DNA of 19,891 nt from Candidatus Thorarchaeota archaeon (GCA_011364905.1 RDNZ01000047.1:1-19891); one strand, 5' to 3'. Counted from the stretch's first letter, positions 9,653 to 19,891 are shown. The notes: generated by a model from the sequence alone, not told the origin. Numbers and translations: made by a program.

Positions 9653-10576
9653 TTAGTTGAGGCTGAAACCTGTTTCTTCAAGAACTTGGTGAACTCTTCT
9701 CACACGGGGATCGGGGAAAGTGGTCCCCGGAGAAAGAATCAGAGGTTCCGCTATGACAGCAAGTCCAGACTCTACTATTTTCTGAACGACCATCTCAACT
9801 TCTCGCACATCTTTTACAAAGAACTTGAAGAACAACGTTGGTTCCGTGGCTGAAATAAAATCATCCAAATGCAGGAGGGCAAACTTGCTCTGCAACCAAT
9901 CCAGCAGTTGTTCCTTGTTTGTCGTACCTACATTCCACTGCACTTTGGCAAATACCTCTATGCTCCCTGCATTCAGGGCATCCCCAACTCCGAGTGTAAA
10001 AAGAACTGCTTCACTCTTCTTCATCAAATCAATACTCTCTTTAATTGCGTTTGAATGAAATCCTGTTTCTTTGGCAATTTCACTCACTGGCATTCTAGGG
10101 TTTCTGACTAGACATTTTAGTATCTCGCGGGAGATGTTTGTGAGTTTTATTTTTCCTCCCCAATAGTGCAAGAATCTTGAATGCAACTCTACATTCCTTA
10201 GTCCATGATGCTCGCGCAGATGATGAGTTAGGGACTTGAGTTCTTCTTGATTGAAGTACACACCAAGCACGAGATATCTCCCATCATGCACTCTGGAGAC
10301 CCTGTGCACCAATGGGTTACTTCCAAGTTTTTTGAATAGATGTTTTTCGTCTGGATCAATATCGAAATTGAGAATGGCAATTACAGAGTTTTCTTCAGTC
10401 ATAGGGGGGCTTAGAATCACAAGAAACTCTCTGATAATGCCTGAGGATTGCAGATTCTCAATGCGTTTCTTTACCTCATTTGCTGATACTCCAGAGAGTG
10501 CCGCAAGGTCTTGTAAACTTGTTCTGCAATCGACCTGTAGCTGCTTAAGGATTAGTTGGTCGATGGAGTTTATCAT
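9653..10576 (-). CDS. Tandem-duplicated Lrp/AsnC-type winged-helix regulator
   Basis: Two AsnC-type HTHs (IDQLILKQLQVDCRTSLQDLA...RIENLQSSGII; ISREILKCLVRNPRMPVSEIAKETG), each followed by an alpha/beta domain. Confidence 0.85.
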   Translation of the reverse strand: MINSIDQLILKQLQVDCRTSLQDLAALSGVSANEVKKRIENLQSSGIIREFLVILSPPMTEENSVIAILNFDIDPDEKHLFKKLGSNPLVHRVSRVHDGRYLVLGVYFNQEELKSLTHHLREHHGLRNVELHSRFLHYWGGKIKLTNISREILKCLVRNPRMPVSEIAKETGFHSNAIKESIDLMKKSEAVLFTLGVGDALNAGSIEVFAKVQWNVGTTNKEQLLDWLQSKFALLHLDDFISATEPTLFFKFFVKDVREVEMVVQKIVESGLAVIAEPLILSPGTTFPDPRVRRVHQVLEETGFSLN

Positions 10577-10686
10577 GCTTCAAAGATTTGCCTAAATCGT
10601 ATGATATGAATCTAACGAACAATACTCCAAGAGATTTTTTAAGCCACCTAGGTAACTTGAAAACCATACTACGGGAGTCGAATGGA

Positions 10687-11025
10687 ATGCCAACCAAAGA
10701 AGAACTGATGGAATCACTAAAAACAATGGTTGGAAAGGTCGAACTTCCAACGAATAAGAAGCGTTTTGCAAAGTACAATAAAACTCTGCAATTGGATTTC
10801 ACTGACATTCCAGAAGCTGTTTGCTATATTGTTTTTCAGGAAGGTTCAGCCACCATCAATGAAGGTGTCAACGAAAGCGCTGAACTAAGAATCACAACTA
10901 CATCTGAAACTATGATGGCAGTTCTCAATGGAACTTTAAGTCCCACACGCGCCTTTATGTCAGGTCAGCTAAAGGCCAAAGGTCCGCCAAATGACTTGAT
11001 GAAACTGCAAGCTCTAATGAAGTAG
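10687..11025 (+). CDS. Stand-alone SCP2 sterol/lipid-binding domain protein
   Basis: AELRITTTSETMMAVLNGTLSPTRAFMSGQLKAKG is a typical SCP2 C-terminal signature. Start reassigned from TTG 10588 to in-frame ATG 10687 (112 aa), which has GGGAG upstream and a TTTTTTAAG box near 10636-10643. Confidence 0.9.
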   Translation: MPTKEELMESLKTMVGKVELPTNKKRFAKYNKTLQLDFTDIPEAVCYIVFQEGSATINEGVNESAELRITTTSETMMAVLNGTLSPTRAFMSGQLKAKGPPNDLMKLQALMK

Positions 11026-12153: not shown

Positions 12154-14112
12154 CTAGACTTGTTTCTTCTTATACAAGTAGACCGCTATCAAAGCAGCTG
12201 CTGCAATACCTCCGCCTACGACCACTATAGTAAACGTATCAGGTCCAAGCGGAGGAAGAGAGTATTCTCCAACGATATATGCTTGGGTCCATACATCTTG
12301 AGTCATAGTATCAAAGGTAATGTATGCTAGTCCTGTTGAGGTGACATCTACATGGAACGGAAAACCGCTTGGCACTGGCCAATAATCATCTCCTATAGTC
12401 CATGTCTGTTGAAGGGTTCCATCAAGACTATGCTTTAGAAGGAAATACGATTCATCATATCTTTCTCCTCGCATTAATACCAACAGTTCATCATTTGGTG
12501 TCAAAGCAATATCGTATGCCCGTAGATCCTCAAGCCAATTATTTTGATACTCCATTTCATCGTTTGCAAGAAGTGTTTCGTTTCCTTGTAAGTCGACTTT
12601 TTTGATTAAGACCCCAATACCCGTTGTTTCGGCTATATAGAGTGATTCATTTCCATCATAACATGCCGCATGAGCGAAACTATTCCACAGGAGGTTTCCG
12701 TCAAGGTCAAAGCATGCGATATGTCCAGCTACATAGGATATTATCTGTGAGTCGGTGACCCAGAGATCGCCCTCCGTATCAAGGTACGTGCTTAATGGTA
12801 CAGGTTTGGTCCATAGAAGATCTCCCGAACTGTCAAACTTCAGCAAGATCGAGTTTTCGAATGTTGGCTCACTTCGGATGTTGTTCTCTGAAGCCATTAC
12901 ATAAATTGAACCATCGCTATGAACACCAAGAGCGACTCCAATTTGGTCATATTCTTCTCCCCACTCCTTTTCCCAAATCTTCTGACCATTGGTGCTCCAT
13001 TTTGTAAGCATGAGATTATGATAGTCCGGACCTTCGAAGCCATAGAAGTAACCTGTGGTAAATAAATTGCCATCATGAAACGCGATTGCTCGCGGTCTGG
13101 TAAGATTGTCATTCCGTATCAACCATCCGCGCCTCAAGACTGGGTTGTACTTGTACAAGAATTGGCGACTGGCGTATAGTCCATAGGTTTCACGAAGTTC
13201 AAAGGATGTGAAACTTTCGCCTGTGACGTATAAGTTACCCTCAGGATCAAATGTTGTTCCTCGAAATCGGTCCCAAACATCTGGATCTTCTTCAGAAAAC
13301 GATGGAAAGAAATCCCTGACCTTCGATCTGAAGGTATTGTTATACAGAGGAGTAAGATACGAAGCAGGATTCGGTTCTGCTTCCATAAATACATAGAGAC
13401 GTAGAGAAGTTACTTCAATGGCGACTGATCCATTTTCTAACGAGCTACTAAAGAAATATGTTGGAGCCAATCCCACTCCCAATGTCAGAACATCTTGGGG
13501 GTCCTCTTGGACACCATCCTCATCTTCAACCATTCCCCGCCATCCTGCCACGATGTCGAAATAGTTCAGATCAACGCGCTTTTGTTGGATAACGCTGGTA
13601 TATGGCGGGTCGGAGTAGAATACCCTATCCCAATTGTCGGATGAATCAGTTAACCAAACATACAGCTTGAACATGTTGCTTGCAGACTCTTCTGTATTAA
13701 AACTGCCTGAAAGGGTTGTACTGAAATTCAGATATATCTCAGCATCCTTGGGTATTGTTTCATAGGGCCAGTCAAAGGATTGAACGAAATACACAAAGTC
13801 ATTGAAGCTTGGATATGTGCTATCCTCAATAGATCGAAAGTCTAGCTCTGTGTCCTTAGTGTGTGTCCAATTCAAAATCATTGAGCTTCCACTATAAGTG
13901 TGCGAAAACTCTCCAGAGCTGCCATTGACAAATGCATCCGGTTCGGTTTCGAAATCCGGATCTGGCAAGACCTGTGTGATGTCTATAGCTGACGGTGTTG
14001 CTCCCTGGTCGCGGAAGACAGCTGAATGATTGCCAGTTGTTACTTCAAATGGGATACCGAGTAACATGATACAGGCAAAAACGATTCCAATGATTTTTTC
14101 GAGATTAACCAT
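12154..14112 (-). CDS. Cell-surface protein with beta-propeller-like repeats and C-terminal membrane anchor
   Basis: N-terminal hydrophobic signal, repeated blade-like motifs (DPEGNLYVTG, TKWSTNGQKIWEKEWG, LKFDSSGDLLWTK, DLDGNLLW), several NxS/T sequons, C-terminal TM plus KKK; RBS-like GGGTGAG. Confidence 0.8.
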   Translation of the reverse strand: MVNLEKIIGIVFACIMLLGIPFEVTTGNHSAVFRDQGATPSAIDITQVLPDPDFETEPDAFVNGSSGEFSHTYSGSSMILNWTHTKDTELDFRSIEDSTYPSFNDFVYFVQSFDWPYETIPKDAEIYLNFSTTLSGSFNTEESASNMFKLYVWLTDSSDNWDRVFYSDPPYTSVIQQKRVDLNYFDIVAGWRGMVEDEDGVQEDPQDVLTLGVGLAPTYFFSSSLENGSVAIEVTSLRLYVFMEAEPNPASYLTPLYNNTFRSKVRDFFPSFSEEDPDVWDRFRGTTFDPEGNLYVTGESFTSFELRETYGLYASRQFLYKYNPVLRRGWLIRNDNLTRPRAIAFHDGNLFTTGYFYGFEGPDYHNLMLTKWSTNGQKIWEKEWGEEYDQIGVALGVHSDGSIYVMASENNIRSEPTFENSILLKFDSSGDLLWTKPVPLSTYLDTEGDLWVTDSQIISYVAGHIACFDLDGNLLWNSFAHAACYDGNESLYIAETTGIGVLIKKVDLQGNETLLANDEMEYQNNWLEDLRAYDIALTPNDELLVLMRGERYDESYFLLKHSLDGTLQQTWTIGDDYWPVPSGFPFHVDVTSTGLAYITFDTMTQDVWTQAYIVGEYSLPPLGPDTFTIVVVGGGIAAAALIAVYLYKKKQV

Positions 14113-15592: not shown

Positions 15593-15753
15593 ACTCCTAG
15601 TTCGTTGAAACTTTAGGAGATGGTGCTTCTCTGACTGAAACAGCATAGCCTATTCAGTCGCTGCAAAGCATTTCGTCTATTCAATGGGATACATTTCGGT
15701 GGGACGAGAATTTGCATTTCCAATGGTCTTCGCCATGTAGAAAACTCGGTGGA

Positions 15754-15791
15754 TATTTAAGTCAGTAGAATTCTACTGCGTAGATATCTAC
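15754..15791 (+). promoter_or_regulatory. TATA-like box followed by two tandem palindromic operators GTAGA-N2-TCTAC
   Basis: TATTTAAG at 15754-15761; perfect 16-bp palindrome CAGTAGAATTCTACTG at 15763-15778; perfect 12-bp palindrome GTAGATATCTAC at 15780-15791. Confidence 0.75.
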
Positions 15792-15832
15792 CTAGACTGC
15801 ATGAACTCAAGTTTCGCATTTATTGAATACAA

Positions 15833-17935
15833 ATGTGCATGGAGTGTCAAGGAATGAGGCGAAGAACTAAGGGACTACTGGCGTTTCTGGTTATTGCTGC
15901 AATTACGGTTTCATCGGTACTTTACATCATGAATGGAATATTGAATCGGCCTCCTCCAGAGCCTCTCAATCTGGACGAGGCACCAGCTGAGATTCGTGTC
16001 ATAAAAGCTGATCTCAAGGACAAGCTGTCCAAAAGTATGTTCACCTGGGATGATATGACCAATTTTACCGTTTTTGCTGAATATGTCGCTGAACATCATC
16101 CCGAAGCATTAGGCATCACAAAAGATTGGGAGATAACTGCTGTTCTGGAGATCATTGACACTGGATACTTGTGGTTCGTAGTCGAAAATGATGCATTGAA
16201 TCTAACTGCTGCAGCAGTAGCACCTGCTGATCCTGATGTTACAATAACCCTTAGATTTGACACTCTTGTGGAAGTATTCAGTGCCCAGACAACCGCTGCC
16301 ACTGCATTTCAACGTGGAGATGTTGATTTCGATGGGACTCTGGCGATTGCGCTTAAGATAGACCGATTGAATACGATTTTCTCGTACACGATTATGGATG
16401 CAAAGCTCTACTACTCTTCTGGTATTATTGACTTCGTACTCACTGAGAACATAGAGGGATCGCACACTCCAGGCTACACCTTGTTTCCATGCATCGAGAG
16501 CATCATCACAAATGAATCGATGGAGACCGGGGCTATGGGTGTAGGAAAGGTGCTCATTGTTGATGACCAAGGAACCGTCGTGAATCAATTAGATGATTCT
16601 CAACACAGCGTTCACAAGTTCATTAATTCAACAGCAGTCATGATGGGTGGATCTGACGGGTTGATGGAGATCTGGGATTTCGTTTCTGATACTCGAGTGG
16701 AACTTGATGTTCCCGCTGGCCATCATGAGTTGGACTATAATCCGATAACTGATACCTTCATGGTTCTGGAGACTGCAACCCAGGGAGAGATCTGGAATGG
16801 GCTCGAAGTAATATATGATACAATTAGTGAATACAATTGGGATGGAGACCTTCTCTGGCAATGGGATGCTAGGGTGCATCTTCCATTCAATTCAACAATT
16901 TACACAGCTATATGTAACAATTATACCTTCAGGGGCTATACCGATTGGATGCATGCTAACAGCTTTGCTTGGGATAAGGTTGAGAATACAATATGGCTTA
17001 ATGTAAGAAATCAGGACACAATCCTGAAGATCGACAAAGACACTGGCGAGATTATTTGGCGGGCTGGACGAAATGGCAATTTCACAATACTTGACATAAA
17101 TGGCACTGAAATTGATTCGATTGCGCATTATCCTCATAGCCTAGAGTGGCTGGGGGGCAATCGTTACATTTTGTTTGATAACGGTCTCTTCGACCCTGAT
17201 GTTCCATCATCTATGACTCGGAATGGAACTGGAGTATCTGGCTTTGTAGAGTTTGAGATTGATGAAGAAAATCAGGAAATACGTGAGGTCTGGTCATGGC
17301 ATGCAACAAATTCGACCTATTACTTCTCCGAATCAGGGGGCGATGCTGACCGATTGCCTGATGGTAACACTCTTGGTATCTTCGCAAATCAAGCATTAGT
17401 ACTTGCTCAACCTGATCCCGTCATCTTTACAGAAGTTACTCAAGACGGTGAGATTGCTTGGGAGCTTCAAGTCCGTGGTGGGAACGGTACTTACTATTGG
17501 GCTCATAGAGTTGAGAGATTCTATGAAACCCCCCTGGTCGAAATTCAGAATCAAGTCCTAAATATCAATGCAGGTACATTGTATCTGAATCTCTCAACGT
17601 GGAATTGTGTGAAAGAGATGTTTTCAACAGATGGAGAGATTCGCGTTATTGTGGATGGCACTGAGCTTTACCAAGATGCATTCGAGTTTCAACCTCAGTG
17701 GATAGCAACAAATCTTGAGGTTTCAGTGAGTGACCTTCCAACAAACATGAAGTATATCGAAATCCAAGTGGAGAATAGTGATGGGATTCTCAAGTCAGTA
17801 GTCATATATGGGTCCATAAACCCGCCATCGATTAATCCTGTATTCTATGTATTCGCAGGAATTATGGTAGCTATTCCGGTTATCGTAATGATAAGTCTGA
17901 TACGAACTGGAAGAATCAAATTTGGTAGAGAGTGA
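15833..17935 (+). CDS. SCP2-like domain / aryl-sulfate sulfotransferase (ASST) fusion, anchored at both termini
   Basis: N-terminal TM; SCP2-like PDVTITLRFDTLVEVFSAQTTAATAFQRGDVDFDG; ASST motifs GHHELDY, DWMHANS, NVRNQ, HYPHS, LFDNG, GDADRLPDGNTL; C-terminal TM. Likely start is ATG 15854 (GGAGTG upstream). Confidence 0.85.
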   Translation: MCMECQGMRRRTKGLLAFLVIAAITVSSVLYIMNGILNRPPPEPLNLDEAPAEIRVIKADLKDKLSKSMFTWDDMTNFTVFAEYVAEHHPEALGITKDWEITAVLEIIDTGYLWFVVENDALNLTAAAVAPADPDVTITLRFDTLVEVFSAQTTAATAFQRGDVDFDGTLAIALKIDRLNTIFSYTIMDAKLYYSSGIIDFVLTENIEGSHTPGYTLFPCIESIITNESMETGAMGVGKVLIVDDQGTVVNQLDDSQHSVHKFINSTAVMMGGSDGLMEIWDFVSDTRVELDVPAGHHELDYNPITDTFMVLETATQGEIWNGLEVIYDTISEYNWDGDLLWQWDARVHLPFNSTIYTAICNNYTFRGYTDWMHANSFAWDKVENTIWLNVRNQDTILKIDKDTGEIIWRAGRNGNFTILDINGTEIDSIAHYPHSLEWLGGNRYILFDNGLFDPDVPSSMTRNGTGVSGFVEFEIDEENQEIREVWSWHATNSTYYFSESGGDADRLPDGNTLGIFANQALVLAQPDPVIFTEVTQDGEIAWELQVRGGNGTYYWAHRVERFYETPLVEIQNQVLNINAGTLYLNLSTWNCVKEMFSTDGEIRVIVDGTELYQDAFEFQPQWIATNLEVSVSDLPTNMKYIEIQVENSDGILKSVVIYGSINPPSINPVFYVFAGIMVAIPVIVMISLIRTGRIKFGRE

Positions 17936-18482
17936 AATATTGAGTAAAGATTTCAAACTATTCCTGCCTACTCCAGAGAAACTGACACCAATTCAAGCGC
18001 TTATACTGATTCAGTTGCTTGGAAACTCAAAATATGGCTACGAAATACTACGCAATCTTCGAGACGCATTTCACGGGTCTTGGGAACCAAAGACTGGAAC
18101 CATATATCCTTCACTTCAAGCTTTGGAGAAAAAGGGGTATGTTTCAAAGAGAGTTAAAGATGAAACAACACACTACAGTCTTACAAAACAAGGAAATGAA
18201 AAGCTTAGAGAGATGAGTGATATTATTGCGTACTACCTTCTGTTCAACTCTCGCTTCATTGAATCAACTGTAGCGAATATGCCTGCGTCTTTCACACAGG
18301 AAGTCTTTATGAAAATACACCTAGCTGGAATTGACGAGATGATTCCTGAAGCTCCTATTCTGGAAGCAATTCGAGAGCTTCCAGACAAAGACGTGAAGAG
18401 AGTTTTCCTTGAAAGGAGAATTGAGATCTTGGAAAGAAAAATCAAACTGGTGAAAAAACATCTGAAAAACCTGGATTCTTGA
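17922..18482 (+). CDS. PadR family transcriptional regulator
   Basis: KYGYEIL, WEPKTGTIYPSLQALEKKGYV and YSLTKQG; overlaps or abuts the upstream stop (TTG start at 17922 or 17940). Confidence 0.92.
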   Translation: MVESEILSKDFKLFLPTPEKLTPIQALILIQLLGNSKYGYEILRNLRDAFHGSWEPKTGTIYPSLQALEKKGYVSKRVKDETTHYSLTKQGNEKLREMSDIIAYYLLFNSRFIESTVANMPASFTQEVFMKIHLAGIDEMIPEAPILEAIRELPDKDVKRVFLERRIEILERKIKLVKKHLKNLDS

Positions 18483-18491
18483 GGTGATTGA

Positions 18492-19891
18492 GTGAAGGAG
18501 TATGATATTGTTATCGTTGGTGCTGGCCCAGGAGGATCAATTGCCGCGAAAGAGGCTGCAGAGAAAGGCCTCAAGACTATTTTCTTTGAACGCGGAAGAA
18601 AACCTGGAGAGAAGAACTCCTCTGGTTGTGGATTAGGTCCACGTATGTGGCGAGATTTCGATATCATGAAAGAACTAACACCTGAATCATGTCCTTCAAT
18701 GAGACCTGGCTCTGCTGCTCGGAACTACTTTGTAAACAGCGAGGGTGAGGTGACTGGGTACATCATGACTAGACCCACGGAGTCAGTCAGCTATGAACCT
18801 GCAAAGAGCTGGATCACAATGAATTGTTATCGGAGTGAGTTTGATCCTTGGCTTGCAAAGTTTGCTACCGACGCAGGGGCAGAACTAAAGACTTCGACTT
18901 TGGTTACAGGTCTCCTAAAGGAAGAAGACAAGGTTGTCGGAGTCATCGATGAGAAGGGAGAAAAATACAGAGGATTTGTTATTGGGGCTGATGGTGCCGT
19001 TTCGATGGTCGCCCAGCAGTCAGGATTGCGTCAACGCTGGAATCAGGAGCAGGTGACATTAGTTCCGCAATATGACTTCAAGTGTTCTCCAAGCAAAATT
19101 GATGACATAATGGGTGATGAGGCTCTGGCTGTCTGGTGGTCTGCGACATTCCCAGCAGCTTATCATGTGTTCTTTCACGATGGTTTTCATGTAGGTCTTG
19201 GTAACTGGATGACTTGGTGGGATAGGACGCCCATTTACTATCTAAATAAGGTTGTCAATCTGGAGTATTTTCAAAGGTTGATCAGAGTTCTTGATGCCAA
19301 ACCTAGAGAGTTTCAAGTTCACCTTCTACCTTGGCAAGGTATGCCTCACGATACTCATACCGATAATGTGATTCTGATAGGCGATGCTGGGGGATTTCCT
19401 TGTCCATTAGAAGCCGAAGGCATCTATCCTGCCATGGTGACAGCAAGAGCAGCTATTGAAACAGCAGCGGAGGCAATTGCATCTGGTGATACTTCAAAGG
19501 AATTTCTCTCTCGCTACGATGAAAAATGGAATTCAACATCAGTAGGTGAGGAGTTTAAGACAGGTGTGGAGCTGGCAAGCATCTGGAAGGCTCTCCCATT
19601 TAGCCCAAAGGAGACCATGTCTTGGTTTGTCCCGATGTTTATGGAGGTAATTGGTGGGATAATTGATTGGTCAGAGCCTCATGCTGTTCGAGTTAGGCAA
19701 GTAGCACGCAAAATCAAGCAATATTTGCCGCAGGCTGTCCCCTTCATAATGAAAGAAGTGATTCCTCTCTTGACTGCAATACTTGGTGAAGAGAAGATGG
19801 ACCTTCTAACAGATCCAGAGAAACTTCTGACTGAAATGCCAGAGATTGAAGAAGCCATTTCTAAGGCATTCACGACACCTGATGAGGAGGG
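18492..19891 (+). CDS. FAD-dependent oxidoreductase, geranylgeranyl reductase/FixC-like (3' end beyond the window)
   Basis: Manually translated and absent from the ORF track. GTG start after GAGGTGA (18481-18487). MKEYDIVIVGAGPGGS, KNSSGCGL, YRSEFDPWLA, IGADG and LIGDAGGFPCPLEAEGIYPAM; open for 466 codons to the window end. Confidence 0.92.
   Translation, partial: MKEYDIVIVGAGPGGSIAAKEAAEKGLKTIFFERGRKPGEKNSSGCGLGPRMWRDFDIMKELTPESCPSMRPGSAARNYFVNSEGEVTGYIMTRPTESVSYEPAKSWITMNCYRSEFDPWLAKFATDAGAELKTSTLVTGLLKEEDKVVGVIDEKGEKYRGFVIGADGAVSMVAQQSGLRQRWNQEQVTLVPQYDFKCSPSKIDDIMGDEALAVWWSATFPAAYHVFFHDGFHVGLGNWMTWWDRTPIYYLNKVVNLEYFQRLIRVLDAKPREFQVHLLPWQGMPHDTHTDNVILIGDAGGFPCPLEAEGIYPAMVTARAAIETAAEAIASGDTSKEFLSRYDEKWNSTSVGEEFKTGVELASIWKALPFSPKETMSWFVPMFMEVIGGIIDWSEPHAVRVRQVARKIKQYLPQAVPFIMKEVIPLLTAILGEEKMDLLTDPEKLLTEMPEIEEAISKAFTTPDEE

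Follow-up and report, generated by a model that had tools for sequence, protein, structure and literature searches.

A putative PadR-autoregulated operon of Candidatus Thorarchaeota that brings a surface arylsulfotransferase gene together with a flavin and iron-sulfur redox core

Two described arylsulfotransferases (ASSTs) resemble the protein that heads the locus reported here. The Escherichia coli enzyme has a catalytic His436 and binds the sulfuryl group through His356, Asn358 and Arg374 (PMC13426309), and Cpz4 acts together with the sulfotransferase Cpz8 to sulfate caprazamycins in two steps (Tang et al. 2013, cited in PMC4257720). For the redox enzyme of the locus, the closest architecture is that of the abundant heterotrimeric "conspicuous flavoprotein" BzS1_12970/80/90 of anaerobic benzene degraders (Musat et al. 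2026, PMC13416013) and of the "Magic" proteins 24-26 of Ca. Anaerobenzenivorax ORM2a (Toth et al. 2026, PMC13101534), an architecture put forward in both papers for the initial, still unsolved reaction of anaerobic benzene degradation. In addition, Methanosarcina acetivorans has a geranylgeranyl reductase (GGR) with a dedicated ferredoxin, the pair MA1484-MA1485 (as cited in PMC12042123). Here we describe a locus of Candidatus Thorarchaeota archaeon (GCA_011364905.1, RDNZ01000047.1:1-19891) in which counterparts of these components appear to lie behind one promoter; the parts belong to known families, and it is their combination and apparent regulatory logic that are new. The window, that is, the whole stretch of 19,891 nucleotides analysed, is the entire contig C45 of a metagenome-assembled genome (MAG; G000, 3.08 Mb in 95 contigs, 81% complete) whose homologues bear the names Thorarchaeota or Promethearchaeota and so mark it as an Asgard archaeon, and its genes were called by open reading frame (ORF) calling with Pfam and NCBIfam profiles.

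The probable operon and its tandem operator

Judged by its relatives, the locus at the right end of the window appears to be the promoter and the first three genes of an eight-gene, PadR-autoregulated operon. The three genes encode a surface protein with an SCP2 and an ASST domain, a PadR-family repressor and a flavin adenine dinucleotide (FAD) flavoprotein that resembles both GGR and FixC (Table 1). A sequence-only reading had proposed this trio as a closely coupled unit behind one TATA box with two palindromes. ORF, profile and sequence checks agree that the genes are real, lie on the same strand and are closely coupled behind one operator-bearing promoter, and the TATA box and both 12-bp palindromes are located where that reading put them. 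The PadR stop codon (18480-18482) does overlap the ribosome-binding site of the flavoprotein gene. The ASST stop, said to overlap or abut the PadR start, only abuts it: instead of the TTG at 17922, the start is most likely the TTG at 17940, 4 nt past the ASST stop, as set by orthologues that head their own operon and have an ATG at the matching residue, and therefore the two genes do not overlap.

The suspicion that the operon runs past the contig end was well founded. In congeners, five further co-directional genes follow the flavoprotein gene with overlapping or abutting ends. The full order is SCP2-ASST, PadR, GGR/FixC-like flavoprotein, FixX-like ferredoxin, FAD protein of 482 aa (FADox482), CCG protein of 423 aa, FAD protein of 527 aa (FADox527) and CrtC-like protein, and it is identical in G010 and G018; the front part of this order is also present on short contigs of G019 (two copies) and G021. 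In the genome of the window, contig C68 carries the last four genes of the operon at its end, directed inward; the foremost of the four begins at residue 33, and a convergent radical-SAM gene closes the unit. Contigs C45 and C68 are therefore probably neighbours, separated by some 390 nt in which the ferredoxin gene is expected. Of the downstream genes that had been anticipated, namely those for a ferredoxin, an Etf or lipid proteins, the ferredoxin gene is indeed next in relatives and CrtC-like and SCP2 genes are found, while Etf genes occur in the operon in none of the loci examined.

The operator evidence is comparative. Taken alone, the two palindromes in the window are weak evidence, as 0.42 are expected and two or more arise in 15 of 200 shuffles. 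The 27-nt composite pattern, however, matches in half of the genomes of the genus (14 of 28, at 1-2 sites each), while the reversed control pattern has no match in the same 28 genomes, and all but one of the matches are at promoters of this operon family. The exception, a second match in G013, falls within an ORF longer than 1000 aa and is probably due to chance. Across 11 promoters, the 27 nt average 87% identity, compared with 34% in the 20 nt upstream of the TATA region and 44% in the 12 nt that follow downstream. Of the 16 promoters found in the genus search, 14 have the operator together with a padR gene, and the remaining 2 are cut by contig ends.

The operator is followed by three arrangements of genes: ASST-PadR-GGR in G000, G010, G003, G018, G019 (two copies) and G021, with the operator-bearing contig ending within the ASST gene in G003 and G018; PadR-GGR in G001, G002, G008, G013, G014 and G015; and PadR-FADox482 in G024 and G044. 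At the padR-first promoters the PadR ATG is located 13-17 nt past operator 2. Moreover, in a sister genus (g25; G041 = G378, G042 = G382), the ASST gene is followed directly by the CrtC-like gene and is unlinked to padR, while PadR-GGR-FixX-FADox482-CCG-FADox527-SCP2 is an operon of its own at another place in that genome; the operator precedes each of the two units. Because the pattern is specific to these promoters and also precedes the padR-first genes and the unlinked ASST-CrtC unit, the tandem palindromes most likely serve PadR as the operator in a small regulon to which the ASST gene belongs. PadR control of this promoter, as the sequence-only reading had it, is thus predicted with strong backing from the conservation of the operator and its adjacency to padR.

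Repressor operators between the TATA box and the transcription start are the usual geometry in archaea, and bacterial PadR/LmrR proteins bind a site of the form ATGT-N8-ACAT. The window system is like the PadR/LmrR autorepressors in combining a winged-helix PadR domain with a C-terminal domain and in having the gene adjoin palindromic operators at its own promoter. Unlike them, it has a tandem GTAGA-N2-TCTAC operator in the archaeal position, with the transcription start placed from the usual archaeal TATA-to-start distance.

The exact palindrome GTAGANNTCTAC has 6 copies in the genome, against 3.4 expected. Two are at this promoter, and another two stand in tandem immediately before the gene of a second PadR paralog (192 aa, with 33% identity to the window PadR; G000 C68:63305-63933, L072:4305-4934). 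The palindromes before this paralog, GTAGAGCTCTAC and GTAGACATCTAC, are 21 bp apart, and a Redoxin/thioredoxin-like gene follows it.

Table 1. Features of the locus, with the operon genes that relatives carry downstream (nt, window positions; aa, residues of the SCP2-ASST protein; TM, transmembrane; AF2, AlphaFold2)
Feature	Position	Strand	Basis or remark
TATA-like box ATATTTAAG	15753..15761	+	sequence; same place in 11 aligned promoters, consensus ataTaTAAgTag
Operator 1, palindrome GTAGAATTCTAC	15765..15776	.	inside 16-bp perfect palindrome 15763-15778; GTAGAAT.C.AC kept in all orthologous promoters
Operator 2, palindrome GTAGATATCTAC	15780..15791	.	centre 15 bp from operator 1, over expected transcription start
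SCP2-ASST surface protein, 700 aa	15833..17935	+	Pfam; likely start M8 = ATG 15854, conserved across family
TM helix	aa 10-37
SCP2 domain	aa 52-188 (nt 15986-16396)		Pfam SCP2 (PF02036) 31.8 bits, cut-off 21.3
Beta-propeller ASST domain	aa 200-563 (nt 16430-17521)		Pfam Arylsulfotrans (PF05935) 101.3 bits, cut-off 24.2, residues 240-551
Beta-sandwich	aa 568-660		AF2 model
C-terminal TM helix	aa 669-691
PadR-family repressor, 180 aa	17940..18482	+	Pfam PadR (PF03551) 60 bits, cut-off 27; TTG start
GAGGTGA ribosome-binding site	18481..18487	+	sequence; overlaps PadR stop codon
GGR/FixC-like FAD flavoprotein, 466 aa	18492..19889	+	Pfam FAD_binding_3; GTG start; stop codon cut by contig end
FixX-like ferredoxin, 92 aa, 2x[4Fe-4S]			end-to-end alignment with FixX, low score
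VAO/PCMH-type flavoprotein FADox482, 482 aa			FAD_binding_4 + FAD-oxidase_C
CCG/HdrD-like Fe-S protein, 423 aa			Fer4_8 + 2xCCG; HdrD/GlcF/TfrB-like
Second VAO/PCMH-type flavoprotein FADox527, 527 aa			FAD_binding_4 alone
CrtC-like double lipocalin, 359 aa

The redox core and its distribution

The trio of the window is not the unit that is conserved, contrary to what the sequence-only reading had supposed: the conserved core is PadR with a two-flavoprotein/CCG Fe-S enzyme resembling glycolate oxidase GlcDEF, which is found across Asgard archaea without any ASST. At E <= 1e-40, FADox527 is matched in 146 of 400 Asgard genomes, as a rule by a single copy, and the genes for FADox482, the CCG protein and FADox527 are intact as a set in all 14 distant loci. 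Around this set the composition varies. The GGR/FixC-like gene with FixX adjoins it in 5 of the 14, in the same or the divergent direction, the flavoprotein being 64-73% identical in these distant Asgard families; the GGR-FixX pair is absent from some versions of the operon (G044, G024). The CrtC-like gene follows the set in 6 of the 14. SCP2 genes, detected by Pfam as BLAST is too insensitive, end the operon in G041, G042 and G353, and in G044 one is placed between FADox527 and CrtC. In the Loki-type loci L128, L129, L133 and L134, the slot between the FADox527 and CrtC-like genes, which in Thorarchaeota is taken by an SCP2 gene, encodes a conserved protein (about 135-160 aa) that Pfam does not match; it also occurs in L127, about 3 kb downstream, where there is no CrtC-like gene. 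By hhalign against SCP2, a 16-column C-terminal G-x-V-K-x-x-G motif alone was matched in this protein, at a probability below 1%.

The order of the three core genes matches BzS1_12970/80/90 and ORM2a 24-26. In each case the set consists of a FAD protein of the PCMH type whose C-terminal part is an oxidase domain (~54 kDa), an Fe-S protein resembling CCG/Hdr proteins (~47 kDa) and a second FAD protein with the FAD-binding domain only. The likeness is one of gene order and domains, and the E. coli glycolate oxidase GlcDEF is a more distant parallel. The genomic company also differs, as the Asgard version is joined to PadR, GGR/FixC-like and FixX, CrtC-like or SCP2 genes, whereas the version of benzene degraders is joined to beta-oxidation and coenzyme A (CoA) genes, and nothing suggests benzene as the substrate of the Asgard enzyme. 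The Atlas look-alikes are bacterial proteins with FAD_binding_4 only and are a lead at most. Both VAO-type proteins have PCMH/VAO enzymes as their best sequence matches in the PDB. An AF2 model of the 527-aa subunit (predicted local distance difference test, pLDDT, 80) matches D-lactate dehydrogenase and 4-alkylphenol oxidases equally (template modelling scores 0.68-0.73 at 15-19% identity).

The ORF of the GGR/FixC-like flavoprotein is complete to the last residue (the orthologue has 466 aa) and the stop codon alone is lost. The best NCBIfam match is the GGR superfamily TIGR02032 at 133.8 bits, below the cut-off of 158.8; the FixC/ETF-quinone oxidoreductase model NF007542 gives 72.7 bits, under its cut-off of 610; and in the PDB, its matches to FixC (7koe_C) and to GGR (3oz2) are of about equal quality. 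Six other paralogs of the GGR family are encoded in the genome, of which five pass the TIGR02032 cut-off at 199-242 bits. One of these five, on contig C41, outscores the others by a wide margin against the digeranylgeranylglycerophospholipid reductase model (443 bits) and is the likely lipid reductase. We therefore rejected the window flavoprotein as a housekeeping GGR, and the isoprenoid reduction that the sequence-only reading ascribed to it is not borne out. The GGR family has a conserved Cys motif of the PCGG type and a YxWxFP motif; the window protein has the variants SGCGLG and VWWSATFP, and the other GGR paralogs of the genome carry a PCGG-type motif in the place of SGCGLG. FixCX of FixABCX (7koe) and MA1484-MA1485 offer the closest parallel, with a FAD protein of the GGR/FixC superfamily followed by a ferredoxin of about 90 aa with 2x[4Fe-4S] and overlapping gene ends. 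The window operon differs from FixABCX in that it has no EtfAB/FixAB genes and its flavoprotein is below both the GGR and the FixC cut-offs.

The surface arylsulfotransferase and its family

In an AF2 model (pLDDT 87), the ASST protein consists of a TM helix, the SCP2 domain, the beta-propeller, the beta-sandwich and a second TM helix. Foldseek against the PDB places Cpz4 first (9kf4, E 2e-23) and E. coli ASST second (E 1e-15), and Cpz4 is also the best sequence match. The active site appears to be preserved: H374, N376 and R392 align exactly to His356, Asn358 and Arg374 of the E. coli enzyme, and H435, one position off its catalytic His436 (3ELQ), matches the Cpz4 His exactly. H374, R392 and H435 do not vary among 42 family members, and the conservation of N376 is at least 90%. 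The protein is thus like Cpz4 and E. coli ASST in its propeller fold and in the counterparts of the active-site His/Asn/Arg and the catalytic His; it is unlike them in its archaeal origin, in having a membrane anchor at either end, and in the SCP2 domain that precedes the propeller and the beta-sandwich that follows it. The SCP2 assignment agrees with PDB sequence matches to 4jgx and 4uei and with the helices and five-strand sheet of the model at aa 52-188, and the same region also matches Pfam Alkyl_sulf_C (E 1e-4), under the cut-off. Type III alkylsulfatases (SdsA1/Pisa1) carry a C-terminal SCP2-like domain and so are likewise sulfate-ester enzymes fused to a domain for hydrophobic ligands, but their catalytic fold is that of a metallo-beta-lactamase instead of a beta-propeller and the domain order differs. 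In G021, the orthologue (L029 / L016, G021:C86, 544-2635) is split into two frames near residue 146, by a frameshift or an assembly error.

Because the two TM segments have positively charged ends and the protein carries 12 N-x-S/T sequons, its bulk is predicted to face outward. The six redox and lipocalin proteins of the operon have no signal or TM segment in any of them.

The ~700-aa SCP2-ASST architecture is present in Thor-, Sif-, Hod-, Hermod-, Heimdall- and Lokiarchaeota. No description of Asgard SCP2-ASST proteins was found in the literature searched, which held no paper that pairs Thorarchaeota with an arylsulfotransferase; the papers on Asgard archaea and sulfotransferases treat unrelated subjects, going by their titles and abstracts. 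In 20 of 40 family loci (loci L039-L065), the immediate neighbour encodes a cytoplasmic Sulfotransfer_3 protein (~380 aa) of the type that uses 3'-phosphoadenosine 5'-phosphosulfate (PAPS). The genome of the window has an orthologue of this sulfotransferase (55-61% identity) directly downstream of an adenosine 5'-phosphosulfate (APS) kinase gene (G000 C36:125820-127507, loci L142-L144). As with Cpz8/Cpz4, then, family members are usually paired with a sulfotransferase gene, whereas the window paralog is paired with the PadR redox operon. Another SCP2-ASST paralog of this genome (49% identical; L023, G000:C5:30324-32396) and its orthologues in L034-L037 are preceded by a pyridoxal phosphate (PLP)-dependent (PALP) enzyme; in L034-L037, a protein of the alkaline-phosphatase/phosphodiesterase family is encoded just upstream of that enzyme, and this context is conserved.

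In a quick maximum-likelihood tree, the window ASST belongs to a Thorarchaeota-specific clade, here group A (support 100), on a long stem (0.55). This clade is sister to the one linked to the PLP enzyme and the phosphodiesterase-family gene and is nested among clades whose genes lie beside that of a PAPS-type sulfotransferase. By these comparisons, the ASST is a late, lineage-specific addition in one Thorarchaeal lineage, placed under the same operator in two arrangements. We infer that the PadR-first order is the older one, the ASST gene having been inserted behind the operators. G019 (74% complete) holds two diverged operator-ASST-PadR-GGR units (L031 / L086 on C268 and L026 / L091 on C311), with ASST copies 85% and 68% identical to that of the window, which may reflect a real duplication or two strains binned together.

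Possible function and neighbouring genes

We favour the explanation, to which we give a probability of roughly 55%, that this is a PadR-autoregulated eight-gene operon with an anaerobic redox core and a recruited surface ASST that acts on sulfate esters. PadR dimers would prevent initiation by binding the two palindromes that lie between TATA box and transcription start, and a hydrophobic ligand would release them. In the cytoplasm, the GlcDEF-like heterotrimer would oxidise a poorly soluble organic compound without oxygen, its Fe-S subunit passing electrons to the small ferredoxin and from there to the GGR/FixC-like flavoprotein, while the CrtC-like protein, or the SCP2 protein in other genomes, would handle the hydrophobic ligand. 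In what is the weakest step of the proposal, the outward-facing, doubly anchored ASST might strip or transfer sulfate from an aryl- or alkyl-sulfate form of the compound; the SCP2 domain would then take up the lipophilic product, which would enter the cell, induce the operon and be processed. Surface (de)sulfation would in this way precede redox modification of one substrate, presumably a poorly soluble hydroxylated or aromatic compound. The recurrence of SCP2 or CrtC-like lipocalin genes in the operon makes it plausible that the substrate is hydrophobic, as the sequence-only reading had it.

Several observations weigh against this explanation. The linkage of other family members to PAPS sulfotransferases points to the addition of sulfate and not to its removal, and the predicted topology sets the ASST ectodomain outside the cell, apart from the redox proteins, which are all cytoplasmic. 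Group-A ASST was not found in G001, G008, G013, G014 and G015, all of which have the operon; it is missing from most operon-bearing genomes, so that the core function does not depend on it. The operator is lacking at one group-A ASST (G044, locus L030), and the operator evidence comes entirely from one family of closely related MAGs and so is not independent. As models for the flavoproteins, 4-alkylphenol oxidases and 2-hydroxyacid dehydrogenases are not separated by sequence and fold. Finally, no conserved transporter, CoA ligase or beta-oxidation genes were found near the core operon in 20 loci.

The same absence of the ASST from most operons, its separation from the redox proteins by the membrane, the other gene partners of its family (PAPS sulfotransferase, or PLP enzyme and phosphodiesterase) and the group-A copy that lacks an operator would all be expected if the gene were a passenger, landed between the promoter and padR by rearrangement, co-transcribed without any link to the pathway and keeping the surface sulfation role of its family. 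We regard this as unlikely, though it is the least unlikely of the alternatives, since the ASST-CrtC unit of the sister genus, apart from padR, has its own copy of the operator and carries along the CrtC-like gene of the operon, and since a distinct group-A clade on a long stem fits a change of role. The family partnership can also be read in favour of carrier recycling, in which the operon would make or regenerate a lipid-soluble phenolic sulfate carrier that the PAPS sulfotransferase loads and from which the surface ASST sulfates extracellular targets, in a two-step transmembrane sulfation. The adjacency of the two genes in half of the family loci, the position of the sulfotransferase orthologue behind the APS kinase gene and the structural match to Cpz4, the ASST of a two-step system (PMC4257720), are consistent with this idea. 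However, the ASST paralog of the window is not beside a sulfotransferase, the redox operon is widespread without any ASST and the cluster has no polyketide or aromatic biosynthesis gene, so that we hold carrier recycling to be improbable.

Just as improbable, in our judgement, is the lipid modification that the sequence-only reading put forward, with the SCP2-ASST sulfating an isoprenoid or sterol-like lipid and a true geranylgeranyl reductase saturating it. The lipid-binding nature of SCP2 and CrtC-like domains, the GGR superfamily as the best NCBIfam match and the Methanosarcina precedent of a GGR with its own ferredoxin (cited in PMC12042123) speak for it. They are set against a flavoprotein that scores under the GGR cut-off and matches FixC equally well, paralogs that pass this cut-off and include a better candidate for the lipid reductase, operon versions that lack GGR-FixX altogether, and an inducible repressor, which fits catabolism or detoxification better than membrane biogenesis. 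It is also tempting to speculate, going beyond the favoured explanation and with little confidence, less than we would grant even the passenger gene, that Asgard archaea have a surface sulfuryl-transfer system in which SCP2-ASST proteins and the cytoplasmic PAPS sulfotransferase communicate via a lipid-soluble sulfate carrier. The Thorarchaeal paralog would then have been rewired under PadR to desulfate hydrophobic or aromatic sulfates of the sediment, feeding an oxygen-independent flavin/Fe-S enzyme of the family suspected in anaerobic benzene activation.

Under the favoured explanation of a redox operon with a recruited ASST, the locus may be of use beyond this lineage. The core enzyme shares the architecture proposed for anaerobic benzene activation. 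The repressor is small and its 27-bp operator sharply defined, and as it probably responds to the substrate of the pathway itself, a screen for ligands could reveal what this substrate is. The co-regulated surface sulfotransferase suggests that the compound has a hydroxyl group and occurs as a sulfate ester. Moreover, the Asgard-wide SCP2-ASST family, with its usual sulfotransferase partner, points to sulfation chemistry at the Asgard cell surface.

Two further genes of the window touch on these subjects. A standalone SCP2-domain protein of 145 aa (10588-11025, plus strand; Pfam 53.7 bits) adjoins the genes for an AsnC-type regulator (9653-10576, minus strand) and an M29 peptidase, and has only 21% identity to the SCP2 genes found at the end of the redox operon in relatives. 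The product of the minus-strand gene at 12154-14112 is a surface protein of 652 aa. It has a signal or anchor at the N terminus and a TM helix at the C terminus, together with 9 glycosylation sequons and weak propeller repeats of the NHL/SBBP type, and its homologues recur near group-A ASST genes in L030 and L033.

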